The notes: generated by a model from the letters alone, not told the origin. A stretch of DNA of 64,000 bases from an uncultured candidate division Zixibacteria bacterium (GCA_963817915.1 CAWFQL010000016.1:128171-192170), one strand, 5' to 3'. Shown: positions 26,066 through 58,799, numbered from the stretch's first letter. Made by a program: numbers and translations.

Positions 26066-26275
26066 TAACCGGTGCTGCCGGGTCCCCCGACCCCTACAGA
26101 AAACACCCGAAGTAGGTCGGGTTTCTCATCCGGCAGCTGCCGGATGAGAAACCCGACAACATATTTTGTAGGTCATTTCCCCTGGGAAATGACATCTTGC
26201 ATGTCAGGTCGCAGGCGACCGGACCTACGGCTATTTGTGTCGTATGAGGGCATCCGACACCACTCATTGTTATGA
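26066..26275. repeat. Composite palindromic intergenic repeat (REP/MITE-like), copy 1
   Basis: Perfect 20+20 hairpin gtcgggtttctcatccggcagc/tgccggatgagaaacccgac. Shared modules gtaggtcatttcccctgggaaatgacatc, caggtcgcaggcgacc, gagggcatccgac. Confidence 0.65.
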
Positions 26276-27269: not shown

Positions 27270-27460
27270 AGAATTTGCGCGTGCTGCCGGATCCCCCGAC
27301 CCGACAGAAAACTCCAGACGTAGGGCAGGAGTCGAAGACTCCTGCCAAACTTGCATAGATTTGTAGGTCATTTCCCGTGGGAAATGACGTCTTGATTCCT
27401 CGTCAGGTCGCAGGCGACCTGACCTACTGCTGCTTGTGTCGGAATGAGGGCATTTGACTG
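27270..27460. repeat. Composite palindromic intergenic repeat, copy 2
   Basis: Same 5' end as copy 1 (gtgctgccgg.tcccccgaccc). Modules gtaggtcatttcccgtgggaaatgacgtc and gtcaggtcgcaggcgacctgacctac. Ends ...aatgagggcatttgac. Confidence 0.65.
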
Positions 27461-27741
27461 GGCGGCAGGCATCCTTGACTGCCCCAATAGAATCCGAATC
27501 GAAGGGGCAGCTGTGGACAGCTGCCACCCAATGTGTAAAGGATGTCATGATACACCGTGTTACCCATGTCCCGGTACACTCGCGCGCCGACCCGAACCGC
27601 AAAATATTTATTGACGTCCATGATAAAATGATTATCTTGAGATTAATTGTTGGATGTGAAGTGATTTTTCCATGATAGGTCGAATTGTCGTCAGTAAAAA
27701 ATTACCGGCTACGCTCAAATAACGAATCAAGGAGCTCGATA

Positions 27742-29043
27742 ATGCGCAACAAATCAAACAAAATCATCTTATCAGCTTTGGCGATATGTATTTTGCTTTT
27801 GGTCTTCTCATGCTCAAAGGACGAGCCAACCGATCCCAATATGCCGGGGCCACCAAGCTTGACAACCGCTGCCGTCAGTGCAATTACACAATCTACGGCA
27901 GAATGCGGCGGCACTATTACTTCCGATGGCCGTAGAACTGTAACCTCACGGGGAGTCTGCTGGAGTACAAACCCGACACCGACAATAGCTGATAGCCTTA
28001 CAATTGACGGCGCGGGCGTAGGAAGTTTTGTTAGTTCCATCGCCGGTTTGTCTGCCAATACTCTTTATTACGTCAGGGCCTATGCTACCAATGAAATTGG
28101 CACCAGCTATGGCGACTCTATATCGTTTTCGACTTTGTCTTCTGCGCCGGTGCCTGTATTAAGTACGGCCGAAGTCACGGGAGTAACGCACGCGGCAGCC
28201 CAGTGCGGCGGGAATATTACATCGGATGGCGGGGCAACCGTAACCGCTCGCGGCGTATGCTGGAGTACAAATCTGACACCTACTGTGGCCGATAGCAAAA
28301 CTACTGATGGTACCGGAGCAGGCAGTTTTACCAGTTCCATAACAGGATTGACAGACAGCACTGCTTATTATGTCAGGGCTTATGCCACTAATAGCAACGG
28401 CACTGGTTATGGCAATACTTCATCATTCACAACGACTGATTCAATGGGAACAGTAACGGATATAGACGGCAATATTTATCAAACGGTAAAGATAGGTAAT
28501 CAATGGTGGATGGCAGAGAATCTGAAAGTAACTCATTACCGCAATGGCGATGCCATACCCAATGTAACCGACAATACCGCATGGGAAGGTCTTACTACAG
28601 GAGCATATTGCAACTATAATAACGATACTGCCCAATGTTGCTATTTATGGCAGACTGTATAACTGGTATGCCGTAAATGACAGCCGCAATATAGCGCCAG
28701 CAGGCTGGCATGTGCCGAGTGATGCTGAGTGGCAGACATTAGTTGATTATCTTGGCGGCAATGCAGTTGCAGGCGGGAAGATGAAAGAAACGGAACCACA
28801 CATTGGAGCAGCCCCAATACTGGAGCCACCAACGAAAGCGGTTTTTCCGCGTTGCCCGGCGGCTACCGTAGCAGCAATGGGACTTATGTACGATATGGGT
28901 AACTACGCCTACTTTTGGTCTTCTACGGAGAACGATAGTAACGACGCATGGTACCGTAGTCTGAGTTACATAATTCAGAAGTCTTCCGGCATAACACTAC
29001 AACTATGCAAGACGGTTTCTCGGTTCGTTGTGTTAAGGATTAA
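27742..29043 (+). pseudogene. Decayed lipoprotein gene: two fibronectin-III-like repeats plus a Fibrobacter succinogenes major paralogous (FISUMP) domain, at least 4 frameshifts
   Basis: Lipobox LLVFSC. Tandem ~90-aa repeats (CGG.ITSDGG.TVT.RGVCWST...YYVRAYATN). The FISUMP motifs are scattered over frames 1 and 2: IGNQWWMAENL (f1), LYNWYAV..PSDAEWQTLVDYLGG..AGGKMKE (f2), GTTHWSSPNTGATNESGFSALPGGYR (f1), AYFWSSTE..AWYR (f2), GFSVRCVKD-stop (f1). Confidence 0.6.
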
Positions 29044-29312
29044 TTTGGTACCGTTCTACCACCTGACTTGAAAAAAGCGGGAGTAAATTTTGTCGGATAA
29101 GAGCAACCGACACCGCAAGAAACACTATTTCGTTTTGCTATGATTGCATTATGCAGCTATTTTAAAGTATTATCAACGGTTTTATTTTAATGTCTAATAA
29201 TGTATTACAACATTTCTTGACAGTTCTGGAAATGTTTCCTATAATCATGGAGTATCGGCATGCATTTGAGTGAAGCAATCATTAATTTAATTAATTTGAG
29301 GAGGTGATAAAA

Positions 29313-30316: not shown

Positions 30317-32363
30317 TTAACGACAGATTCGAATGTTACTTCCGTCTGCTTGCGGCTTGGTTTTGGCGTGCGGTTTTACATACTGCCCGCGCGGCTGGGG
30401 TTTGTAGACATCATTCCAGTAGTTGAATCGTTCCACTTCGAGCATTTCTTCGGGTATATCCTGCAAAAATTCCGACGGCCCGCCGGTGAAATCGCCCCAG
30501 CGCCGCCTGAATCCCGCCATCGCCATGTAAAGCTTATTCTTGGCGCGCGTGATACCGACATAGCAGAGCCGCCGTTCCTCTTCCATATCGCCCGGCTCGC
30601 CGTAATTCCGTCTCAATGGAAACAGGCCATCCTCCATTCCGGCCATGAAGACCGAATCGAATTCCAGCCCCTTGGCCGAATGAAGCGTCATCAATGTCAC
30701 CGCCTGAGCCTCGCTATCCAATGTATCGATATCGCTGATCAGCGCCACCTCTTCGAGGAACCCCGCCAACGTCGGCGCTTCGGTCCGTTCGCAATACTCC
30801 TCGATACCCGACACCAATTCGCGCACGTTGTCGGCTCGAACATCGGCCTCGGGCGTGGCCTCTTCTTCGAGCATTCGCAAATATTTGATATCCTCGATTA
30901 TGCGCGCGGCGATATCATGCGGTTCCAGAGCTCTCCAATTTCTCCGAGAGATTATTCATAATGCCGATAAATTTCTGTATCTCCAATTTCGCCTTGCCGC
31001 CGATCTCAAGCTCATTCATCGATTTCAACAAAACCTGCATCAACGGCATTCCCTGCTTGGCCGCGTGGCTTTCGAGTTTTTCGATACTGGTCTTGCCGAT
31101 GCCCCGTTTGGGCATATTGATTATTCTCAATAGCGCGATATCATCGGCGGGATTGATCAGCAGGCGCAAATAGGCGAGAATATCCTTAACCTCGGCTCGT
31201 TCATAAAATCTGATACCGCCGACAATCTTGTAAGGGAGCCCCTTGTAACGAAGCGAATCCTCGATCACACGCGACTGGGCGTTGGTGCGATACAAAATCG
31301 CGAAATCCGACGGCGACTTATCGTATGTAATGCCAAGTCTGATTTTTTCGGCAATCGCCTCGCCCTCGTTGACCTCGTCCCCGCATAGGAGCAATGTTAT
31401 CTTATCGCCGCCCTTTTTCTCGGTGAAGAGTTTCTTGGCTTTTCGTCCGAGATTTTTCGAGACCACTTCGCCCGCGGCGTCCAATATGATCTGTGTCGAA
31501 CGGTAATTCTGTTCGAGCTTGATCTCCTTGCATTCGGGATAATCCTTCTCGAAATCGAGAATATTGCTGATATCCGCCCCGCGCCAGGCGTAGATCGATT
31601 GATCATCATCGCCGACAACACAGAGATTATGGCTGGCCGACGCCAGTAATTTCACCAAACGATACTGGCAATGATTGGTATCTTGATACTCATCTACCAT
31701 CAAATATTTAAAGCGATCATGAAATATCTTCAAAATATCCGGCCGTTTTTCGAAAAGTTCGACCGTCTTCATCAAGAGGTCATCGAAATCCATGGCCTGA
31801 TTTTTGGCCAAGCGTTTTTGATACTCATCATAAATTTTCGCCACATTTTCTTCGAGAAAATCCGACGCGGCCGAAGCATATTCCGATGGCGTCAATAATT
31901 TGTCTTTGGCCTTTGATATTTTGGATTTGGCCGCCCCGAACGTCGGCTGAGTATCCGATAGCCCCTTATCCTTGTAAATCCGCTTGAGCAACGCCAGCGA
32001 TTCGGATTCATCATATATGGAGAAGCTCTTGATATACCCCAGCGCCGCACCATGGTCCCGCAATGTCCTCGCGCAAAATGAGTGGAATGTCGAAACCCAG
32101 ACCTTGCCGCCATCCGGCCCCATGATATCGATCACCCGTTGCTTCATCTCGCCCGCGGCTTTGTTGGTGAATGTCACCGCCAATATCTGCCACGGCTTGG
32201 CCGTCCCGGTCGCGATTAGATGCGCGATACGATGAGTGATGACTCGTGTTTTGCCAGAACCGGCTCCAGCAAGTATCAGCAACGGGCCATCGAGTTGCTC
32301 TACGGCCTGCCTTTGACGATCATTCAGCCCATCGAGATGCTTGTACTTTTCCATCGCCGCCAA
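30317..32363 (-). CDS. UvrD/PcrA-type ATP-dependent DNA helicase, split by a frameshift around 30915-30935
   Basis: Walker A AGAGSGKTRV, motifs Ia through VI across the 482-aa ORF. The 187-aa downstream ORF carries the TLMTLHSAKGLEF and YVGITRA motifs. In a third frame IAARIIEDIKYLRML reads through the junction. Confidence 0.75.
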
Positions 32364-32403
32364 TATATAAATTTGATTTTGCTTAACAAGCGGTAAAAAG
32401 CTG

Positions 32404-32620
32404 TTTGCGTGTCAAAGCTTGCTTTGACCGCAAGATATTGCCGCGATTATCGTGTCGTGGGGTCCGCGCACCCACGATTAGGCAAATTTTGTAGGGGTTT
32501 GATTTATCAAACCCTAATACTTGTCATTCCGCACTCGATGCGGAATCTATCATGCTTTTCAGTTATGCGTCAGGATGGAATAAAATTTATTTGCGTGTCA
32601 AAGCTTGCTTTGACCGCAAT
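32404..32620. repeat. Repeat block: two 30-bp direct repeats (tttgcgtgtcaaagcttgctttgaccgcaa), each holding the 18-bp perfect palindrome gtcaaagcttgctttgac, flanking three hairpins
   Basis: Direct repeats at 32404-32433 and 32591-32620. Internal hairpins ttgtaggggtttgatttatcaaaccctaa and gtcattccgcactcgatgcggaatc. Confidence 0.55.
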
Positions 32621-32692
32621 ATGCTGTTGCGGTCGCAGTAAACTGCGACGCGCATGAGAACACAATTTAATATTTGACATATGAAATGTTAA

Positions 32693-32914
32693 ATGATTAA
32701 AATGGCGGCATCTATGATTATCAATCTTGAAAAATACAATGATGACTTGATGGCCATTCCTGGTGTTGTCGGGACAGGCAAAACCATGATAAACTGCAAA
32801 CCGGTAATTATGATTAAGGCTCGGCAAGATAACAATGAAATCAGGACTAAAGTCAACTCTGTATTGCGCGGCCTACCTTTCAAAATAGAAGTTGTCGGTG
32901 ATATCAAAGCATAG
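32693..32914 (+). CDS. Small hypothetical protein (about 70 aa)
   Basis: ORF directly downstream of a TTGACA-17-TTAAAAT promoter-like sequence. Possible alternative start at 32702. No confident homology. Confidence 0.3.
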   Translation: MIKMAASMIINLEKYNDDLMAIPGVVGTGKTMINCKPVIMIKARQDNNEIRTKVNSVLRGLPFKIEVVGDIKA

Positions 32915-33407
32915 TCCTGAGAAAGATTTCAAGCCGCAAATTCGCGCATATTTTGAATAATTTTAATTGACATAATGTCCAGTCCCTATTACAGTAATGC
33001 CCCAATAGATATGAATGACAACAGGAACGGGCAACTTGAAGAAAATATTATTTAAGACAGCTTTTGGGGTTATGATTCTCGCGGTAATCATTATTATTTC
33101 CATTTTCCTTTATGATAATGAAAGGGCAATTTCCAATACACGCAATAACTCGCCGGAAAAAGCTCTCAGTATCGATGATAAATAGGACTTAGCGTTTACA
33201 TTTGACCATTCAAAATTCAAATATCCAAATATCGCTTTAAAACTTCCATTGTTTGCTTGTATAATTCGTTCATGAAGGCATTTTCTATGAGTATTGATGA
33301 TCTTATCATTCGGCGCCAAACCGATTATTCATACTACCCTAATCATTCCCTAACGATCTTGGAGTTTGTTCCTAAGTAAAAACTAACCAAACCATGGATG
33401 ACGAAAG

Positions 33408-34097
33408 ATGCCTAAGGAAAAAATACTAATCGTAGAAGATGATAAGAATATTGTAGAATTGATCAGGTATAATCTGGCCCGGGAAGGCTATCGCCCCGAA
33501 ATCGCGCTGACCGGCGAGGATGCGATCAAATCAGCAAAAAGCAATATGCCCGATCTCATTCTACTTGATCTTATGCTCCCTGGTATGGATGGTCTCGAAA
33601 TCTGCAAAATTCTGAAAAATGATCATAAAACATCCAATATGCCGATCATAATGGTCACAGCCAAAGGCGAAGAATCGGATATAATTACCGGCCTCGAATT
33701 GGGGGCGGATGATTATATCACCAAACCATTCAGCCCCAAAATCCTGATCGCACGAATCAGGGCTGTCTTGCGCCGAAAAGCCGCCGAAAAATTGAAAGAG
33801 GACGCACCCGTAAATATCAGGGAGTTGACTATAGACCCATTGCGGCATGAAGTGAAAGTAGCTGGACAGACAATCGATTTTACCAATACCGAATTCAGAA
33901 TTATCCATTTTCTGGCGTCGAAACCGGGCAGGGTTTTCACTCGTTATCAAATCGTGAATAATATTAAGGGAGAAGATTACCCGGTCACGGACCGTTCAGT
34001 CGATGTCCAAATAGTCGGAATCCGAAAAAAATCGCCGCATCTGGCTGATTATATAGAGACAGTCCGGGGCGTGGGGTATAGATTTAAAGAAGAATAG
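33408..34097 (+). CDS. phoB: OmpR/PhoB-family response regulator
   Basis: Receiver with D-D-K residues (EDD...DLMLPGMDG...K) and a winged-helix C-terminus. Heads the phoR-porin-pstSCAB-phoU array. Confidence 0.75.
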   Translation: MPKEKILIVEDDKNIVELIRYNLAREGYRPEIALTGEDAIKSAKSNMPDLILLDLMLPGMDGLEICKILKNDHKTSNMPIIMVTAKGEESDIITGLELGADDYITKPFSPKILIARIRAVLRRKAAEKLKEDAPVNIRELTIDPLRHEVKVAGQTIDFTNTEFRIIHFLASKPGRVFTRYQIVNNIKGEDYPVTDRSVDVQIVGIRKKSPHLADYIETVRGVGYRFKEE

Positions 34098-49170: not shown

Positions 49171-51131
49171 TCAGCTTTCCTCGTACTCGTCCTTCAATGA
49201 TTTGACGACATTCGGATCGGCCAGTGTCGTGATATTTCCCAGAATTCTACCTTCGGCGATATCTCTTAACAATCTTCGCATGATTTTCCCCGAACGAGTC
49301 TTAGGTAAATCTCCCGCGAATATGATTCTCTCCGGCGTGGCAAATTTGCCGATTTTCTTAGCGACCCATTGGATAAGCTCTTTTTCCAAGAATGGATCCG
49401 CCTGATTGCCATCACGAAGACTCACGAAAGCCACCAACCCCTGCCCTTTTACCTCATGTTTGACACCGATTACAGCGGCTTCGGAAACGGCCTTATGTTC
49501 GACAAAAACACTTTCCAGCTCCGCCGTACCGATTCTATGACCGGATACATTAACGACATCATCGACCCGTCCCAAAATCCAGTAATAGCCGTCATCATCT
49601 TTTCGGGCGCCATCGCCGGGGAAATATATGCCGGGCCATTTAGACCAATAAGTTTGTTTGAATCGTTCGGGATCGCCATAGATACCGCGAGTAATTCCTG
49701 GCCATGGCTTTTTAATCGCCAGCAATCCGGCATTCGTTGGTTTCCCCTCTTCGGTAAGCACGTCGGCATCGATACCGAAAAATGGAAGAGTAGCGCTGCC
49801 GGGCTTAGTTGTAATGCATCCGGGCAATGGCGTAATTACAATCCCGCCAGTTTCGGTCTGCCAGTAAGTATCGACAATCGGGCAATTTTCATGGCCGATA
49901 TTTTCATGATACCACATCCAGGCTTCGGGATTGATCGGCTCACCGACCGTGCCTAAAAGTCTAAGCGATGATAAGTTGTATTTGTTCGGCCAGCTCTCTC
50001 CCCAACGCATGAAAGTTCTGATCGCGGTCGGGGCGGTGTAGAGTATTGTTATGCCATATCGTTCTATCATCTGCCAGAAACGGCCTCGATCCGGCCAATC
50101 AGCCGCGCCTTCATACATCACCACAGTAGAGCCATTGGCCAGGGGCCCATAGACTACATAACTGTGACCAGTGACCCATCCGATATCGGCAGTACACCAG
50201 AAGACATCCTCCGGCCTGAGATCGAAAACATATTTCGAGGTGGCATAAGTATAGACCATATAGCCGCCGGTCGTATGAATTATCCCCTTGGGCTTGCCGG
50301 TCGTGCCGCTGGTATAGAGCAGGAAAGAGCATATCTTCGCTGTCTATCTCTTCGGCGGGGCATTCCATCGACGCGTTATCCATGACTCTATGATACCAAT
50401 GATCTCTACCCTCGACAATCTTGCACGGGAAATTCGCCGCTTCCGAACGTTTTATCACAATGACATCTTTGACAGTCGGGCTGGTTTCGAGAGCCTCATC
50501 GACAATATTCTTCAATGGCATTATATTGCCGCGGCGCCAGGAGCCATCGGCGGTAATTACCAGTCTGGCCTGACAATCATTGACCCGGTCGCTGATTGAT
50601 TCCGATGAAAACCCGGCGAATATCACCGAATGAATCGCGCCAATTCGGGCACAAGCCAGCATGCTGATTGCCAATTCGGGAATCATGGGCAGATAAATTG
50701 CGATCCTATCGCCTTTTTTTACGCCGAGCGATTTTAAAACATTGGCGAATTTATTTACTTCGCGGGCCAGATCCCAATATGTGAGTACTCTACGATCACC
50801 CGGCTCGCCTTCCCAGATAATCGCGGCCTTATTGCGAATATGGCTATCGAGATGACGATCGAGGCAGTTATAGCAAAGATTGGTTTTGCCATTTTCAAAC
50901 CATTTGAAGAACGGAGCATCGTCGGAATTCAGGGTTTTATCCCATTTTTTATACCAGATAAAGCTCCTCGGCAATCTCGGCCCAAAATGATTCAGGATTA
51001 TCAATGCTTTTGTCGTAAAGCTTTTTATATTCCTCGATACTTGAAATATGGCTTTTCTTCTTGAATATTTCCGCCGGTTCGAATTCTCGACATTCCTGCG
51101 AAATAGTCTCGAGTTTCATTGAATCTGCCAT
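49171..51131 (-). pseudogene. acs: Acetyl-CoA synthetase (AMP-forming) gene carrying at least two 1-nt frameshifts
   Basis: Three collinear ORFs cover the N-terminus (FWAEIAEEL), middle (WDKTLNSDDAPFFKWF...EDMLF) and C-terminus ([11 protein letters not shown]...[11 protein letters not shown]). At about 50322 the reading [24 protein letters not shown] is restored by removing one C. Confidence 0.75.
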
Positions 51132-51972: not shown

Positions 51973-52533
51973 TTATCGTTTAAGTCGCCATTTGGCGGCA
52001 AATGAATCCGGGGTTTCGCCGCCGACAAGATATTCGGCTATTTTCAGCGCAAATTGCAGAGCGGCACCCGGGCCCATGCCGGTGATAATATTGCCATCCT
52101 GTGTTACCAGCTCATCGGTAATGATCGCTCCGCCGCGGGCGAGCTTGTCATTGAATACAGGATCGCCGGTGGCACGTTTGCCTGTTAGAATATTAGCCGC
52201 TTCGGCCAGAACATGGCCGGGGGAAGCGCATATGGCCGCCACCAATTTGCCCTCAAAATAATTTTTCTTTGTTAATTCGATTACTTTTTCGCTGAAGGCC
52301 AGATTTTCGGCGTTTTTTCGTCCGCCGGGAAATATGATAGCGTCATATTGCCCCTTGACCGAATTCAAGTCGGTATCCGGGATTATCGTAGTCCCATAGG
52401 CGCCCTTGATTGTGCCGGGGATCAGGTTGGCTATAGTCAGGTCGACCTGGACGCGATTCAAAATGTCAATTATGGCGATGCCCTCGATGTCCTCAAATCC
52501 ATCGGACAATACCAGCAGGGCTTTCTTCTTCAT
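51973..52533 (-). CDS. DJ-1/PfpI family protein
   Basis: Nucleophile elbow AAICASPG and the flavodoxin-like class I glutamine amidotransferase-type fold. Confidence 0.75.
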   Translation of the reverse strand: MKKKALLVLSDGFEDIEGIAIIDILNRVQVDLTIANLIPGTIKGAYGTTIIPDTDLNSVKGQYDAIIFPGGRKNAENLAFSEKVIELTKKNYFEGKLVAAICASPGHVLAEAANILTGKRATGDPVFNDKLARGGAIITDELVTQDGNIITGMGPGAALQFALKIAEYLVGGETPDSFAAKWRLKR

Positions 52534-52639
52534 GCTATCTCAAACGATAAATTAAGGGAAGGGGTTCCACGGGCGATTATGATTAATTTGTCGGGTTTTC
52601 TCTTGGCGCGAGCAAGATTCCGCATCAAGCTCTCTTGAG

Positions 52640-52760
52640 TCCGGCGACCGACGGATGCGGAATGACAGGTCTAAAGTAGGTCAGGTCGCCTGCGACCTGA
52701 CTATAAATTTAGGACGTCATTTCCCAGGGGAAATGACCTACAAAGATATGTTTTTTGATC
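52640..52760. repeat. Composite palindromic intergenic repeat, copy 3 (inverted relative to copies 1 and 2)
   Basis: gatgcggaatgac, gtaggtcaggtcgcctgcgacctgac and gacgtcatttcccaggggaaatgacctac. The following ~70 bp are near-identical to 54330-54400. Confidence 0.65.
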
Positions 52761-52824
52761 GGCATTGACTACTTCGATATATTTATTGTCGATTTCTTGA
52801 TAAACACGAAGGGCTGTAACATTA

Positions 52825-54235
52825 TTATTTTAGATATATAAGCTTTATGGCCTTTTCGTTCTGGGGCGTCGATGCTTTGGCAAAGTATATCCCTGTAGAT
52901 AGCCTTTTGCCGGAAGCGTCAGTGGCGTCCCATATTATTTGTCCCTCCTCCTTTGAATCGGTCCCCAATTTAGTGATCAATTGGCCATTGATGTTGTATA
53001 TCTCGATCTCACCTCCTTCAAGATTTGTATAAGTTAGAATTGTCGAGGAATTAAATGGATTGGGATAAGCACTTCAGCAGAAATATCCTCAGGCAAAGTT
53101 GGTTCGTCTATCCTCAACTTCAGAACCGCCCGAAATCGTCCCCCGGCGATAGTACAAGCATTTGTGGTTGCCCCATAAGGTATCATCTCGGGCATCGCAG
53201 TAAGCTACATGGATGTGATCTGCCGTCAATTGCGACTGCCGGCTCTACAGTTTTCCAGGGGGAATAAGTCACGCGAACCGGCTCCCCCCAAGTGACTCCT
53301 CCGTCGGGTGAGAGATTGAAAAAGACCTCTTCTGAATTCGTCTCGCCATCAAGAACGATTTCATCATAGATCATGAATAAGGAATCGTTTCTCTGCGTGA
53401 TATTCTTGCCAAATGCGAGGTGATTGAAGGTCAGTTGCTGTTCAGGGAGCCAGAATTCCCCATTATCAGTCGAGCGTCGCATCAAAATGTCCCCAGTCCA
53501 ACCATAAGGAGAATACTTATAATCCAGCCAAATGACTGCGAGATTGGAATCCCCCCAGGCCGTCATCTCGGGATTAAAGGAGTTGTCTTCAAGATAATCA
53601 GAGATACGAACCGTATCGCTCCATCCGGGCTGAGAAAAGAGATACTTGCAATAATATATCTCTTCGTTACCCCTTTCCACGATCATATGCAGAGCCGAAG
53701 GAGTCGCCCCTAAGGCCGATTCACCCTCAAGATAACGCTTTGTGGAGTGATAATACCAGCGATAGCCATGATTAATGCTGTAATAGCATTCCATATTATG
53801 TGCATACGTGTAGAAAATGGCATAAAGCGTTGAATCCATAGAGGTTACGGAAAGTTCAAAGCCTTGAATATAGGTTCTCCTCCAATCGCTCCAAGTCTGG
53901 CCAAAATCGCTTGAATATATACTTCGAAAAATGCCATTACCAATGAAAGGAAAACTGATATAATTTGAATTAGAAAATAAATAGTTAAATATCGCAGAGA
54001 CTCCAGGAGTGTCTATTAGGCAGACCTGCTCACTCCATGCATCGCCATTATTTAAACTCCTTATATAATAAGGTTCGAATGCGGAAGCATTGCTTGCAGT
54101 TGCATGGACATAGCCATTATAAGCAGAGACAGTCGGGAAAAAGGTATTGAGGCCATGCGTCAGCCTTATTTCGGGGTCCCAGTCTATAGAGAGTATCTCA
54201 TCGCGGCTATCCGGCGCTCTTGCCTGGGCCGGCAT
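52825..54235 (-). pseudogene. BNR/Asp-box repeat surface protein with T9SS C-terminal sorting domain, paralogue A. The 5' end is replaced by a palindromic repeat element and the 3' half has multiple frameshifts
   Basis: Homology to paralogue B begins exactly at PGMPAQA, directly abutting repeat copy 4, so there is no signal peptide. After VAIDG the reading frame is lost, but an intact T9SS C-terminal domain (YPNPFNSSTILTYTNLEGGEIEIYNINGQLITKLG...KLIYLK-stop) is present in a third frame. Confidence 0.65.
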
Positions 54236-54330
54236 GCCCGGGGGCGGGAAAGTAGGTCAGGTCGCCTGCGACCTGACTATAAATTTAGGACGTCATTTCC
54301 CAGGGGAAATGACCTACAAAGATATGTTTT
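54236..54330. repeat. Composite palindromic intergenic repeat, copy 4
   Basis: Near-identical to 52676-52760. Abuts the truncated 5' end of paralogue A. Confidence 0.65.
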
Positions 54331-54399
54331 TTGATCGGCATTGACTACTTCGATATATTTATTGTCGATTTATTGATAAAATAAGGCGCTGTAACATTA

Positions 54400-55945
54400 T
54401 TATTTTAGATATAGAAGTTTGATAGCCTTTTCGTTTTGGGACGCTCTTGCTCTGGCGAAATAGATGCCTGAAGAGACTTTATTTCCCATAGCATCCCGGG
54501 CGTCCCATATTATTTGTCCCTCCTCATTTGAATCGGTCCCCAATTTAGTGATCAATTGACCATTGATGTTGTAAATCTCGATCTCACCTCCTTCCAGATT
54601 AGAATAAGTGATTATTGTTGACGAATTAAATGGGTTTGGATATGCCCTAATAGAAATACCGTCAGGCTTTGTTTGTCTATCCGGCTCGACATTAGAACTG
54701 CCTGAAATTGTCCCTCTACGGTAATACAAGCATTTATGGTTGCCCCATAAGGTATCATCCCGGGCATCGCAGTAAACGACATGGGTATAGCTGCCATCAA
54801 TCGCGACTGATGGATAGACCGATCTCCAGGGGGAATGAGTCACCCTTAATGGCTCACCCCAGGTGACCCCACCATCAGGAGAGAGATTGAAAAAGACCTC
54901 TTCTGAATTTGTTTCTCCATCGAGTACAATCTCATCATAAACCATGAATAAGGAGTCGTTTCTCTGAGTGATATTCTTGCCGAAGGCCAGATGATTGAAT
55001 GTCAATTGTTGCTCGGGCAGCCAGGAATCGCCGTTATTAGTGGAGCGGCGCATGAGAATGTCGCCAGTCCAGGCATAAGGGGAATATTTATAATCGACCC
55101 AAATTACGACAAGATTGGAATCCCCCCAGGCCGTCATCTCGGGGTCAAAGGATGCGTGCGTGGGATCGTCGGAGATTCTCAAAGTATCGCTCCATCCGGG
55201 CTGTGCAAAGAGATACCTGCAATAATATATCTCTTCATTACCCGCCTCAACGACCAAGTGAAGAGCCGATGGAGTCGCTCCTAAGGCCGATTCCCCCTCA
55301 AGATAGCGCTTCGTAGAATGATGATACCAGCGGTATCCGTGGTCAGGACTATAATAGCACTCCATATTATGAACGCTGACAGATAGAACAGTATAAAATA
55401 CTGTATCCAAGCGTACAGTGGAAAATTGGTTCCCCGAAATATAGGTTCTTCTCCAGCTACTCCAGGTTTCACCAAAATCGCTCGAATAAACCGAGCGAAA
55501 AACTCCATTCCCGCTAAATGGAGCAGTAATAAAATTGGAGTCTGCAAAAATTAAAGCCCCCCCCCCTTACTCCAGGATCTACTAAACATACCTGATCGCT
55601 CCAGTTTGCGCCATTATCCGAGCTTCTAACGTAGTATGGTTCAACAGTATAATTGCTGGTGATAGCGTGCACATAACCTTCATCTGCGGCAACTGCGCTA
55701 AAAAAGGTGTTAAGGCCATACGTCAGCCTGACTTCAGGCCCCCAGTCTATGGAGAGAATTTGATTGCGATTATCGGGCTCGCTGGCCTGGGCCGGCATGC
55801 CCGGAGATGGATCGGGCAAAGTGGCATGCATATTCCGCGGTTGCCAAGAGCCATCCGGGAAGTAGCGTCCGGACCTATCAGGCGTTTGGCCAATAGCCAT
55901 AGAAAAGAGAATCATTATATTTGCTATTATTGTGATTGAGCGCAT
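54400..55945 (-). CDS. BNR/Asp-box repeat surface protein with T9SS C-terminal sorting domain, paralogue B, frameshifted at a poly-G tract
   Basis: Signal peptide MRSITIIANIMILFSMAIG. Asp-box repeats S.D.G.TW. C-terminal YPNPFNSSTIITYSNLEGGEIEIYNINGQL...SGIYFARA...LLYLK. With G9 instead of G10 at 55556-55565 the two ORFs fuse into one (about 515 aa). Confidence 0.7.
55556..55565. repeat. Homopolymeric C10 (G10 on the coding strand) tract inside paralogue B
   Basis: ccccc ccccc at 55556-55565. It encodes VRGGG, and the frameshift maps here. Confidence 0.8.
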
Positions 55946-56232
55946 AGAGTAATTCCCCTTTAAATTCCCCTTTTTCACGCTATTAAAATAAGCTGTCTTA
56001 CCATTTAAATATGCAATTTTATCCATTTTGTCAAGAATTATTTTAAGTTTATTTTGTATTTTCAGGGCTCGCGCAATCAATGTTATGTCTTTTTTTTCTA
56101 TTTAACCCATTATGATAAATCAATGGATTGATAGAGTATGATAACGTCGAGGCTATAAAACATCTAAAATATTATATTGCAATATTAGAAAGCTATTGTA
56201 TATTAATCACAGATATTTAAATCTGAATTATT

Positions 56233-57723
56233 ATGAGGCACCTCATGCGCAAGACCTTAGCCTTAATAATATTAATAATAGCCTTGACCGCCACGGCCGC
56301 CTTTGCCGGCTGGTCGGAGCCGAGGCTTGTATCTCCCCCGGGCGGGTGCGATGCCCCCCAGATATTAGCTATTCGAGATACATTACACATTGTATATGAA
56401 ACTACACGATATTATGATAAGATAGTTTATCAAAGGAGCACGGATGGGGGGCTAACCTGGAGCGCTCAACATATACTTTCGGATCGCTTATATGAAACAC
56501 TCTTCCCAAAGATAATAGCTAGAGGTGACAGACTAATGGCGCTTTGGAAGAAAGGGCTTACTGGTTATTATAGAAATACTATCGCTTTTAGTGTTTCGAC
56601 GAATAATGGAATCACCTGGTCAACCCCCGGCGTGGTTATTAATCCGGGTTGCCCTGATAATCTTTATTTTGCCGCTTCCGTGGGAAACGGATTGAATATA
56701 AATGTAGTAAATCGGACTTTCGTCGATAGCGATCTTATATTTTACAGTATTCGAAGCACTAATTTCGGGCAAACATGGACTGATCCGCAAGAAATATTCG
56801 GTTGTACTGAGGCCGGATTGCCCGATCAGACAAGTTATGGTAATAGCATACATCTTACTTGGCAAGGTCGCTTTAACTTAAATGAGCCCTGGGATATTTA
56901 TTATTGCCGAAGTACTGATGGAGGACAAACATGGTCCCCAAACACAATGCTCAGCACCATGGACAATCATGGGGCTTTAAGCCCCGCAATTTGCGTGAGC
57001 GATTCTGATAAAGTCAATGTTAGTTGGATGGATGGCAAGTACTCGCCGTATTTGGTTACCGGTGACATACTCATGCGACATAGCGGAGATTCAGGGCAGG
57101 ATTGGGAATCTGAAAATCAAGTATCGTTTAACCATTTCGCGTTGGGGGCAAGCGACATTGTCTCTGAAGGGGATACTATTAATATCGTTTGGGAAGACGC
57201 GATCATGGGGTTGGCCAATAGAAGCATTTATTATGTCAAAAGCACCGATGATGGGGCTACATGGAGCGAACCTTATTGGATAGACGGGACATTCGACGAT
57301 TCATCAAATCCAGCTCTGGCTGTATCCAATGGTAAAGTATATTGTATTTGGACTGATGGTAGGCCCATACCGGATACCAATATAATAGGCGGGGTATATA
57401 TCAGCCGTTGGGATCCTGAACCGAGCGGTATCAAAAATGTAAATAACAATAATGTTCCAGATGAGATAAATTTATCGGCCTATCCCAATCCATTCAATTC
57501 AACAACCGTTATCAATTATACGAACATGAAAGGAGGTGATATTGAGATATTCAACAGCAACGGACAGTTGGTAACGATATTGGGGATCGAATTGAGTAAT
57601 GAAGGGCAAATAAAATGGGACGCCCGGGATGCAATGGGAAATAGAGTCTCTTCAGGCATTTATTTCGCCAGAGCAAGAGCGTCCCAGCATACTCTTTCAC
57701 TTAAACTAATGTATCTGAAATAA
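56233..57723 (+). CDS. BNR/Asp-box repeat surface protein with T9SS C-terminal sorting domain, paralogue C (intact)
   Basis: Signal peptide. At least 6 Asp-box repeats (STDGGLTWS, STNNGITWS, STNFGQTWTD, STDGGQTWS, SGDSGQDW, STDDGATWS). C-terminal YPNPFNSTTVINYTNMKGGDIEIFNSNGQLV...SGIYFARA...LMYLK. Confidence 0.75.
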   Translation: MRHLMRKTLALIILIIALTATAAFAGWSEPRLVSPPGGCDAPQILAIRDTLHIVYETTRYYDKIVYQRSTDGGLTWSAQHILSDRLYETLFPKIIARGDRLMALWKKGLTGYYRNTIAFSVSTNNGITWSTPGVVINPGCPDNLYFAASVGNGLNINVVNRTFVDSDLIFYSIRSTNFGQTWTDPQEIFGCTEAGLPDQTSYGNSIHLTWQGRFNLNEPWDIYYCRSTDGGQTWSPNTMLSTMDNHGALSPAICVSDSDKVNVSWMDGKYSPYLVTGDILMRHSGDSGQDWESENQVSFNHFALGASDIVSEGDTINIVWEDAIMGLANRSIYYVKSTDDGATWSEPYWIDGTFDDSSNPALAVSNGKVYCIWTDGRPIPDTNIIGGVYISRWDPEPSGIKNVNNNNVPDEINLSAYPNPFNSTTVINYTNMKGGDIEIFNSNGQLVTILGIELSNEGQIKWDARDAMGNRVSSGIYFARARASQHTLSLKLMYLK

Positions 57724-57732
57724 TATATATTC

Positions 57733-58130
57733 TTGGGTTATCGTCGGGTGCGGAGACCCGACGACACGGGGAGCGGGTTTAGATTGCTTCGTCCGCCTGC
57801 GACTGAACTTCGATATACGGCTGTCGGGTCAGGCGACCCGACAGCACATATTAATCGGTTACTGCGACCCGACAGCACCGAATGTAATTGTAGGGGCGGG
57901 TTTGAAACCCGCCCCTACCGCGGATTCGTTATAACAATTGAATTATCGTCGGGTGCGAAGACCTGGCGATGCAAGGAAGAGCCCGAACCGCAGGGGTTCG
58001 GGCCTACCCATAAATTAAATTTCTTCGTAGAGACGCAAAATCTTGCGTCTCTACATTGCTAACTTTGTTATCGGGTGGGGTCACCCGGCACCACTAAAAT
58101 TGCCCGAACCACGGGGGTTCGGGCCTACAA
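57733..58130. repeat. Dense array of at least 8 GC-rich hairpins/palindromes in a 400-bp convergent intergenic region
   Basis: tcgtcgggtgcggagacccgacga; gctgtcgggtcaggcgacccgacagc; tgtaggggcgggtttgaaacccgcccctac; gcccgaaccgcaggggttcgggc; tagagacgcaaaatcttgcgtctcta; cgggtggggtcacccg; gcccgaaccacgggggttcgggc. Confidence 0.6.
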
Positions 58131-58133
58131 AAA

Positions 58134-58799
58134 TTATTTTTTTTCGGCTGGCGCGGCAGGGGATTTGGCTGTAACCGCTTTTTCCATTTCGGCTGGTGTC
58201 GGCGGCATCAGGACTTTGTCGATTTCATGAATGACACCGTTGGAGCAGGCGATATCGGCCTTAACAACATTGGCGTCTTCAACCATCAAGGCATTATCGC
58301 CCATCGGCATGAATCTTAATTCCGTACTATGCATAGATCTGGCGCTCTTCATGTCCTTAATTGCCGCAGCCATATACTTTGTGTGAATGGTATGATTATG
58401 AACCAGATACATCAATTCGCTTTTGTTCTTCATCATGGCGTCGAGTTTATCTTTGGGCAATTTGCTGAACGCGTCATCGTTGGGCGCGAAAACCGTGAAC
58501 GGCCCCTGTCCCTTATACGAGTCGGATAGTCCAGCGTTTTTGATTGCGGCTACAAACATCTTGAAATTTGGCATTTCCTCGAGGGTTTGCATGATGTCCT
58601 TGCCCGCCATCACGCTTTTGAGAGCATTAACTGCCGGTTTTTGTGCTTTCATATCCATTTGTGGTGCTTGCTTGGCGGTCATAGTCGGCGGTGTCGATTG
58701 GCTCTTGGGGTCGGGTTTGGCTCCCTGAGTAGCCGTAGCCTGCTGGGCCGATACCGAAATAACCATGCCCGATACGAAAATGGCAATCAGGACTGCCAT
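58134..58799 (-). CDS. Fasciclin (FAS1) domain protein, membrane-anchored or secreted
   Basis: N-terminal hydrophobic segment, Q/P/A-rich linker, FAS1 H1/H2 motifs (TVFAPNDDAF...NGVIHEIDKVLMPP). Confidence 0.7.
   Translation of the reverse strand: MAVLIAIFVSGMVISVSAQQATATQGAKPDPKSQSTPPTMTAKQAPQMDMKAQKPAVNALKSVMAGKDIMQTLEEMPNFKMFVAAIKNAGLSDSYKGQGPFTVFAPNDDAFSKLPKDKLDAMMKNKSELMYLVHNHTIHTKYMAAAIKDMKSARSMHSTELRFMPMGDNALMVEDANVVKADIACSNGVIHEIDKVLMPPTPAEMEKAVTAKSPAAPAEKK

Follow-up and report, generated by a model that had tools for sequence, protein, structure and literature searches.

The window analysed here is a 64-kb stretch of DNA (64,000 nucleotides, given as one strand) from an uncultured candidate division Zixibacteria bacterium. 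It contains three related BNR-repeat propeller genes (A, B and C), each found in a different state: A is beheaded and frameshifted, B is broken at a poly-G run, and C is intact (Table 1). The coordinates and strands given to these genes by the initial annotation are correct (A extends to 54241), and C is indeed one uninterrupted open reading frame (ORF). Relatives of its SecD also assign the host to Zixibacteria. The assembled order is DJ-1 gene - D2 - A - D1 - B, where D1 and D2 are two copies of a non-coding block. The start codon of B (ATG) is at 55945. N-terminal Sec signal peptides, as read from the sequence, are present in B (MRSITIIANIMILFSMAIG; helix at residues 2-18 of the structural model) and C (MRKTLALIILIIALTATAAFA) and absent from A. 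Within the presumed promoter region between B and C, sigma-70-like matches are weak.

Table 1. Features of the propeller gene array and copies of the associated repeat module (positions counted from the first nucleotide of the window).
Feature	Coordinates	Strand	Description
Gene C	56233..57723	+	Intact 496-aa single ORF: signal peptide, BNR/Asp-box propeller, T9SS type A C-terminal domain (CTD)
Gene B	54400..55945	-	Full-length BNR propeller and T9SS CTD, one frameshift at the G10 run
Pseudogene A	52825..54241	-	Tandem paralogue of B; lacks promoter, signal peptide and first ~47 codons
G10 homopolymer of B	55557..55566	-	C10 on the given strand; ~codon 127
Block D1, 3' of B	54249..54380	-	AT-rich 3' segment, then two-hairpin REP-like module
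Block D2, 3' of A	52673..52804	-	Twin of D1
Gene-conversion patch in the CTD of B	54441..54503	-	Matches gene C 57620-57682
B/C divergent intergenic region	55946..56232	.	AT-rich; presumed site of both promoters
REP-like two-hairpin module, extra copy	26171..26224	+	Repeat search of the window
REP-like two-hairpin module, extra copy	27366..27423	+	Repeat search of the window

Both B and C encode BNR/Asp-box repeats (PF13088, BNR_2; PF02012; S-x-D-x-G-x-x-W turns) followed by a T9SS type A CTD (TIGR04183/PF18962). This architecture, which had been proposed from the sequence, is borne out by scores above the curated cut-offs. BNR_2 (cut-off 31.4) scores 50.5 bits in C and 34.8 bits in B, Por_Secre_tail (PF18962; cut-off 27) 31.2 and 33.5 bits, and TIGR04183 (cut-off 23) 35.7 and 40.4 bits, respectively; C also matches BNR with 36 bits. 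In the family alignment the S, G and W of the Asp-box are invariant at residues 108-115, 154-161, 199-206, 301-308 and 355-362. The CTD forms a 7-strand sandwich (residues 431-512) in the AlphaFold2 model of B (mean pLDDT 88.3). The same arrangement of a Sec signal peptide, a beta-propeller and an ~80-aa C-terminal beta-sandwich sorting domain is found in PorZ of Porphyromonas gingivalis (PDB 5M11), a T9SS type A cargo protein and the best Foldseek match by E-value. However, the TM-scores between PorZ and B are low (0.18-0.24) and the PorZ model NF052228 reaches 37 bits where 260 are required, so that the match reflects a common architecture and not orthology. The propeller proteins may be displayed on the surface, and they could bind glycans.

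In the model of B, residues 66-413 are arranged in seven strand groups, each closing with an Asp-box-like turn. The predicted fold looks like a seven-bladed propeller joined to the T9SS CTD, the number of blades being taken from secondary structure and not from coordinates. The best target-normalised structural matches are Ycf48/HCF136 (PDB 2XBG) and the Photorhabdus PLL/PHL lectins (e.g. 8Q82), with TMt of 0.64-0.74 and rmsd of 3.4-6, although their sequence identity to B is just 11-14% and these known proteins carry no T9SS CTD. GH33 exo-alpha-sialidases resemble B and C in their Asp-box repeats and in the BNR_2 (sialidase clan) Pfam match. Profile matches to sialidase chains (E 1e-15 to 1e-7) extend over Asp-box stretches of ~130 residues, not over the whole catalytic domain, and the structural overlay on B is poor (TMt 0.3-0.5, rmsd 11-22; six blades versus the seven inferred). 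The sialidase-like, six-bladed fold for which the initial annotation had proposed structure prediction was therefore set aside for what looks like a seven-bladed one, nearer to Ycf48 or the PLL lectins, given the seven strand groups, the seven-bladed structure of the best-covered matches and the poor overlay of sialidases. No FRIP motif, as known from GH33, is evident. The family conserves R73, D284, D295 and Y407, while most conserved Arg and Asp residues lie at blade-repeat positions, and no full-domain alignment with a sialidase was obtained. Automatic annotation labels one family member (P0057) as a GH33 exo-alpha-sialidase. An experimentally characterised close relative was not found in the structural (Foldseek) and profile searches.

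The three genes had been credited with 60-80% mutual identity. This is true of A and B (75% at the protein level, with A reconstructed) but not of C, which in the multiple alignment is 34% identical to B and 31% identical to A (35% with B in a 416-aa local alignment, E 2e-67). The NMECYY..HGYRWY.HSTKRY core, supposedly common to all three, is missing from C, and the T9SS tails, described as near-identical, are merely similar at the nucleotide level (A-B 83%, B-C 77%, A-C 69%), save for one short patch shared by B and C. C is thus a distant paralogue, apparently of ancient divergence, whose likeness to B is close in the T9SS tail only. Divergence between A and B is high at synonymous sites (pS 0.62) and low at nonsynonymous ones (pN 0.14; dN/dS 0.12), which marks an old tandem pair, long held under purifying selection. 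Their dating is rough, since synonymous divergence is partly saturated and heterogeneous along the gene: at third codon positions, the identity of A and B rises from 0.3-0.45 (codons 25-100) to 0.84-0.92 (codons 400-420). The two genes are equidistant from an outgroup ORF at a related locus, L001 (A 66%, B 68% identity), with no rate acceleration in A.

In the patch within the tail of B, 18 sites in a row side with C against A (identity B-C 47/49 versus B-A 29/49), and both A and the L001 outgroup retain the other state. A run of 18 such sites was produced by none of 100000 shuffles (p < 1e-5). To judge from these sites, a stretch of ~60 nt in the tail of B has been converted from C, and it is this patch, not overall similarity, that links the two genes. 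The paralogues trade sequence by gene conversion, as seen in the C-to-B patch in the CTD and in the drop of A-B synonymous divergence towards the 3' end.

Concerning A, alignment agrees with the earlier observation that its homology to B opens at PGMPAQA, at the boundary of a repeat element (3 nt past the REP-like module). Three frameshifting indels were mapped, at 53219 (+1), 53113 (+1) and 53075 (+2), in keeping with the several frameshifts reported before, and the CTD lies, still recognisable, in another frame. As other genes of the window are frameshifted, it is conceivable that these clustered indels are consensus faults in a region with paralogues. The presence of the same segment 3' of A and of B was likewise confirmed: D1 and D2 are identical at 131 of 132 nt (99%), include a 124-nt perfect repeat and are spaced 1571-1576 nt apart, whereas identity in the coding sequence is ~75-80%. 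Since the D blocks are so nearly identical, unlike the A and B genes, the beheading of A was probably recent. The view that a gene plus its downstream repeat formed a fresh duplication unit is not sustained, as the A-B pair is too diverged, and only the 132-nt block and the 5' loss of A appear recent. The distal end of D1 meets the truncation point of A at the heptamer CTACTTT (junction CCTACTTT/CCCGCC).

The module within D1 comprises two hairpins with perfect 10-bp stems (GTAGGTCATTTCCCCTGGGAAATGAC ... GTCAGGTCGCAGGCGACCTGACCTAC) and folds with -38.9 kcal/mol (z -2.2). Four copies of this doublet (~75 nt) are present in the 64 kb, where shuffling predicts 0, and the module has no match in Rfam. 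REP, BIME and REPIN sequences are palindromic intergenic elements, with which the module was compared in its general traits. It resembles them in its short, perfect, GC-rich hairpins, set as an imperfect inverted doublet between GTAGG...CCTAC, and in its placing: the near-identical palindromic copies are dispersed, intergenic and 3' of genes, and a rearrangement breakpoint falls at one end. Unlike in REP/REPIN elements, the near-identical D block runs ~55 nt past the dispersed module, which indicates that something other than a clean element transposition copied the block.

Three-frame translation of B reveals a single frame switch, at the G10 run. That B is interrupted only at this tract was confirmed: removal of one G restores an ORF of 514 aa, which can be aligned along its entire length with the intact homologues P0003, P0004 and the L001 ORF; both G9 and G12 give an in-frame product (514/515 aa). 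The tract, which falls between the first two Asp-boxes, where the family alignment varies in length, is the sole G/C run of >=7 nt in 64 kb (34 runs of 5, 11 of 6 and none of 7-9). A, L001, L062 and L063 have no poly-G tract at the corresponding site, and 434 kb of related loci show no enrichment of long G/C runs. The only other suggestive tract in these loci is a C8 run in a remote member of the family (L043; L042 is identical), which parts a signal-peptide ORF from a propeller ORF by one base. The protein cluster of B has one member on one contig, the tract was sampled once, and the protein database holds no in-frame (ON) variant.

Poly-G/C contingency loci occur in surface-protein genes of Neisseria, Haemophilus and Campylobacter (see PMC8355987, PMC5084427). 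B is similar to these phase-variable genes in having a long poly-G repeat, an apparent outlier in its genome, towards the 5' end of an ORF whose product is secreted or at the surface, where one base sets the frame. It differs from the loci of pathogens in that the tract is known at one length from one sequence, at a single locus of a free-living environmental phylum, with no other tract-bearing genes in view, and in that a sequencing error may lie behind its frame state. The G-run as an on/off switch is a plausible hypothesis.

The initial annotation saw in the array a contingency locus, and as applied to B this would mean that the G-run is kept as a slipped-strand switch, ON at G9/G12 and OFF at G10, the majority OFF state having been assembled. 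We consider this possible, but doubtful. It is favoured by a unique tract within an ORF, found despite the steep fall-off in run lengths, which is lineage-specific, is the sole lesion of an otherwise full-length gene for a putative secreted or surface protein, and sits in the 5' quarter in a length-tolerant loop; the C8 run of L043 points the same way. Every other run of 6-8 nt inside ORFs is in frame, which argues against a general homopolymer problem in the assembly. The single sampling without an ON form, the absence of the loop tract from orthologues and paralogues, and the lack of enrichment in related loci weaken the case, as does the chance expectation of such a run in 64 kb, which we estimate from run counts at ~0.04-0.1 (small but not negligible). 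Any inference from the frame state is further weakened by frameshifts in housekeeping genes of the window. These include conserved genes split by single-base indels (acs at ~50335, uvrD/pcrA at ~30900), and they speak for a consensus or assembly error, by which the tract would be real but off by one in length and B an ordinary intact gene, possibly still slippage-prone. Such an error is a serious possibility, if short of an even chance. No sequence context is more prone to error, on whatever platform, than a homopolymer of 10 nt, and the genes for SecD, acetate kinase and MgtC are split on L061, a related contig from Zixibacteria with a record name (contig_37751) that seems to us to follow the style of a long-read assembler. 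On the other hand, the in-frame state of the 6-8 nt runs tells against such an error, and the other frameshifts of the window are not at long homopolymers, so that they may be real mutations.

As the window also has frameshifts in acs, uvrD and a FISUMP gene, B may be out of frame through an assembly error or through recent decay. In the latter case B, newly inactivated at a mutational hot spot, would decay as A did, without adaptive switching. The adjoining paralogue is already dead, the FISUMP gene (27685-29090) has at least four frameshifts, decayed remnants exist in relatives (e.g. L001 700-985), and birth-and-death dynamics are seen across the family. We nevertheless find plain pseudogenisation unlikely, as B has one lesion and no further sign of relaxed constraint, although decay and a switch in its OFF phase would look the same in a single sequence. 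It is very improbable that the array itself is an artefact, with A and B as allelic or paralogous copies misplaced in tandem via the identical 132-nt block, even though the 124-nt perfect repeat flanks the unit and the source is a metagenome-assembled contig. The D1/A junction has only 5-7 nt of microhomology, too short for a k-mer or overlap mis-join, from which we infer that it must exist in the reads. Moreover, A shares too little with B (75% amino acid identity) to be its strain allele, and independent assemblies typically show the family in tandem arrays.

About 11 of the related loci that were fetched hold at least two family members. The contig bearing P0006 carries three family genes in tandem, and at L001 the remnant, an internally deleted signal peptide plus tail, lies upstream of a full gene. 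The three-state array of A, B and C is ordinary gene-family turnover, and the initial annotation was right in describing a small family of T9SS-tailed BNR/Asp-box proteins that turns over via duplication and repeat-associated rearrangement. Taken as a whole, the locus is probably a birth-and-death cluster of secreted BNR/Asp-box propeller genes with T9SS CTDs, in which the A-B pair is old and the beheading of A recent. According to this birth-and-death reading, C is the intact, anciently diverged member, transcribed divergently from B, while B and A are a tandem pair, both of which would have been functional for most of their history. A recent single rearrangement may then have copied the ~130-nt block (3' UTR segment plus REP-like double hairpin) between the sites 3' of A and B, in either direction. 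With one end of this event at the heptamer C(T/C)ACTTT, A would have lost its promoter, signal peptide and first ~47 codons, and the three frameshifting indels would have followed, leaving the gene dead. The G10 run, specific to B and placed in a variable loop, is intrinsically slippage-prone, so that the gene may switch back and forth between G9 (ON) and G10 (OFF).

It is rather unlikely, though conceivable, that B represents a genuine slipped-strand ON/OFF switch acting on a T9SS-secreted propeller in free-living, uncultivated Zixibacteria, at a locus continually remodelled by REP-like elements and inter-paralogue conversion. If true, a contingency locus of the type found in pathogens would be at work in an environmental candidate phylum, and it may be recurrent in this protein family, as the C8 run of L043 hints.

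Three-frame translation together with an ORF listing agreed with the extents first assigned to genes A, B and C, which encode BNR/Asp-box proteins with T9SS C-terminal sorting domains. Both C and B, the latter with one G removed, exceed the curated cut-offs of Pfam BNR_2, Por_Secre_tail and NCBIfam TIGR04183. A SecD gene lies 1.6 kb downstream; its named relatives are all from Zixibacteria, the top one at 76% identity, which places the host among the uncultivated members of that phylum. In a large protein database the proteins of the locus occur once, on one 454-kb contig, and a synteny check of the SecD neighbourhood in a closer relative (L061; ENA ERZ25039462 contig_37751) found no BNR locus there. 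A genome collection gave a single locus, an unrelated one from Latescibacterota. An Rfam scan of 52000-58500 gave no meaningful match and a promoter and terminator consensus scan nothing informative; a literature search on T9SS or BNR in Zixibacteria came back empty.

Positions of the features discussed, in the window
Feature	Position	Strand	Remarks
Gene A	52825-54241	minus	pseudogene
Gene B	54400-55945	minus	interrupted at G10
G10 run of B	55557-55566	minus	C10 on the forward strand
Gene C	56233-57723	plus	divergent from B
B-C intergenic spacer			287 bp, AT-rich
Block downstream of B (D1)	54249-54380
Block downstream of A (D2)	52673-52804
Conversion patch in B	54441-54503		counterpart in C, 57620-57682
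Two-hairpin module, further copies	26171-26224; 27366-27423
Intergenic regions dense in hairpins	26100-26230; 27320-27430; 57733-58130
50-nt repeat, two copies	32396-32445; 32582-32631		within 32363-33408
Acetyl-CoA synthetase gene (acs)	49171-51004	minus	break near 50335; two overlapping ORFs
UvrD/PcrA helicase gene	30317-32363	minus	break near 30880-30915; two ORFs, different frames
Lipoprotein-like gene, C-terminal Fib_succ_major (FISUMP) domain	27685-29090	plus

As the initial annotation had proposed, B is interrupted only at its G10 tract, the sole break of frame. The frame upstream of it covers the signal peptide and propeller blade 1, and downstream the +1 frame encodes the remaining protein to the stop codon. 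Deletion of one G yields a 514-aa protein that shows no other break when aligned to full-length homologues, i.e. the ORF of the related locus L001 (66-68% identity), P0003 (57-59%) and P0004 (54-55%). The tract falls in a length-variable part of the family alignment, between Asp-boxes 1 and 2, and no such run is present in A or in the closest relatives with readable DNA (L001, L062, L063). The window contains 34 G/C runs of 5 nt, 11 of 6 nt, none of 7-9 nt, and the single one of 10 nt in B. Five of the 11 6-mers (53284, 53551, 55122, 56354, 56446) lie inside A, B and C, three genes that together cover 7.6% of the window, and part of these 6-mers derive from conserved W-G-D codons (TGGGGGGAT); they could serve as a source for expanding tracts or reflect a simple composition effect.

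Gene A has been damaged in a different way. Nucleotide alignment of the two units confirmed that its homology to B begins at ...CCCGGGCATGCC (PGMPAQA), at the element boundary, with a copy of the block also found after A sitting directly before this point. Homology breaks off at the heptamer CTACTTT, 3 nt past the terminal CCTAC of the hairpin module; B has CCACTTT at the matching site. Promoter, signal peptide and some 47 codons are therefore missing from A. Compared with B, A also has in-frame insertions of 3 and 6 nt and three that shift the frame (+1 at 53219, +1 at 53113, +2 at 53075), which explain why its sorting domain is legible in another frame, as originally noticed. Protein P0002, which starts at MPAQA, suggested that such 5'-truncated copies might be conserved as silent cassettes. 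This was rejected, since its ORF in L001 continues upstream to a normal signal peptide and the short start is thus a gene-calling artefact.

The frame-corrected A protein is 75% identical to that of B, with pS of 0.62, pN of 0.14 and dN/dS of 0.12. Each of the two genes has the other as its closest relative, and both stand at the same distance from the outgroup L001 ORF (66% and 68%). From this constrained, symmetrical divergence it appears that A was functional for most of its history and that its decay is recent. The segments following A and B had been described as near-identical, and they indeed agree at 131 of 132 nt, whereas the roughly 24 nt between stop codon and block have diverged like the genes. 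A fresh tandem duplication of gene plus downstream repeat, the duplication unit originally proposed, is rejected by this contrast between 99% identical blocks and genes with a near-saturated synonymous divergence and a dN/dS of 0.12. Most parsimoniously, A and B would be an old tandem pair in which a single recent event copied the ~130-nt block and deleted the 5' end of A. Template switching at the microhomology, or hairpin-associated or REPIN-like mobilisation, may underlie this event.

At its distal end the block has ~75 nt made up of two perfect 10-bp hairpins within GTAGG...CCTAC flanks. Two further copies of this module occur in the window, where shuffling predicts none, and its recurrence marks it as REP-like and dispersed. 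Local sequence makes up the proximal ~55 nt, so that two independent insertions of the element alone cannot account for the identity of the blocks. Other intergenic regions, e.g. that downstream of C, bear different perfect hairpins. Three such regions are dense in distinct short ones, many starting with GTAGG (e.g. GTAGGGGCGGGTTT/AAACCCGCCCCTAC, and at 26116-26157 a perfect palindrome of 21 bp); such a REP/BIME-like mosaic is characteristic of the genome. A 50-nt repeat is also present twice, 84% identical and 186 nt apart, within a ~1-kb stretch without long ORFs.

Exchange of sequence between the genes is visible at their 3' ends. The sorting domain of B matches A on either side of a patch of about 60 nt, within which B is identical to C at 47 of 49 positions and to A at only 29 of 49; A and L001 retain the other state there, and a B-C run of equal length arose in 0 of 100000 shuffles. 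In addition, A-B identity at third codon positions is 0.3-0.45 over codons 25-100 and climbs to 0.84-0.92 in the sorting domain's first half. The patch and this rise indicate that the paralogues, inverted C included, exchange sequence and that their 3' ends evolve in concert. A recent A-B conversion within the coding sequence was rejected, the longest identical run (32 nt) being reached in 403 of 5000 shuffles. The description of C as a close paralogue with a shared core was mistaken: it is 31-34% identical to A and B overall and lacks the NMECYY..HGYRWY motif. The impression of a shared tail arose because of conversion in the sorting domain.

The family is large (409 matches at E < 1e-5). About 11 of the fetched loci contain at least two members, and the P0006 contig carries three on the same strand. 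Upstream of the intact closest homologue, L001 has at 700-985 a duplicated promoter and signal peptide joined to a T9SS tail fragment, the remnant of an internally deleted paralogue. Together with the common tandem arrays, this remnant makes birth-and-death turnover a family trait. The turnover by duplication and repeat-associated change initially suggested for the locus was substantiated, with duplication, conversion and repeat-associated truncation all found.

A six-bladed sialidase fold had also been envisaged. The AlphaFold2 model of repaired B (84 input sequences, mean pLDDT 88.3) instead has seven strand groups (residues 66-413), all of which close with an Asp-box-like turn, and after them a sandwich of seven strands (431-512). 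When the PDB was searched with Foldseek, the top target-normalised matches were seven-bladed, with TMt ~0.7 and rmsd ~3.5 for PLL/PHL lectins and TMt 0.65 for Ycf48, while sialidases overlaid poorly (TMt 0.3-0.5, rmsd 11-22) and profile matches to their chains were confined to Asp-box stretches. We therefore file the predicted products as BNR/Asp-box propeller T9SS cargo and not as sialidases. Conserved polar residues of the family include R73, D284, D295 and Y407.

Could the interrupted state of B be the OFF phase of a slipped-strand switch? The tract is unique within the window and the only lesion in B, it arose in this lineage, the loop that holds it is a tolerant one in a secreted product, and every other 6-8 nt homopolymer inside ORFs is in frame. 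Moreover, in L043 (2269-3913), a distant member with a dockerin-like C-terminus that matches L042 perfectly over 1387 nt, a C8 run (2554-2561) leaves the signal-peptide ORF one base out of frame with the propeller ORF; loss of one C gives a single ORF, and the ~85 codons in between resemble translated repeat sequence (FVENP...). However, the tract has been sampled only once, long G/C runs are not enriched in the family, and further genes of the window are frameshifted. We consider such a switch rather unlikely.

An additional base in CTCTTTCCTGCTC, immediately before a conserved protein motif, breaks the acs gene, which has either become a pseudogene very recently or contains an assembly indel. 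The helicase gene is divided into ORFs of 482 aa (N-terminal) and 187 aa (C-terminal), which separately hold UvrD_C profile positions 1-169 and 232-347. The FISUMP gene, with at least four frame switches inside ~450 nt and a domain score of 137 bits after frame correction versus 35 bits before, is a second clustered-indel pseudogene from a multicopy family. SecD, acetate kinase and MgtC are each called as two genes on the related Zixibacteria contig L061, which suggests an indel-rich assembly; its record name, contig_37751, presumably follows long-read assembler naming. The same contig encodes several Por_Secre_tail proteins. With such genes nearby and a single sampling, the state of B may be a consensus error, which we tentatively regard as possible, a switch phase, or a fresh pseudogenising mutation, which seems improbable.

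T9SS cargo families, poly-G tracts and REP-associated rearrangements are all of known kinds, and the locus would be of moderate interest only with tract-length heterogeneity in reads. Frame states in metagenome-assembled contigs should not be taken as biology where nearby housekeeping genes are frameshifted too. Stochastic surface-protein variation is known mainly from host-associated pathogens; if the G10 tract truly switches, it would extend to an uncultivated sediment or groundwater phylum, where pressure from phages or grazers, or a change of substrate, would be the likely driver. Should no switching occur, the locus still illustrates in compact form the evolution of a T9SS cargo family: the tandem duplicate is old, the sorting domains evolve in concert through conversion, and one gene was inactivated where a REP-like hairpin lies.
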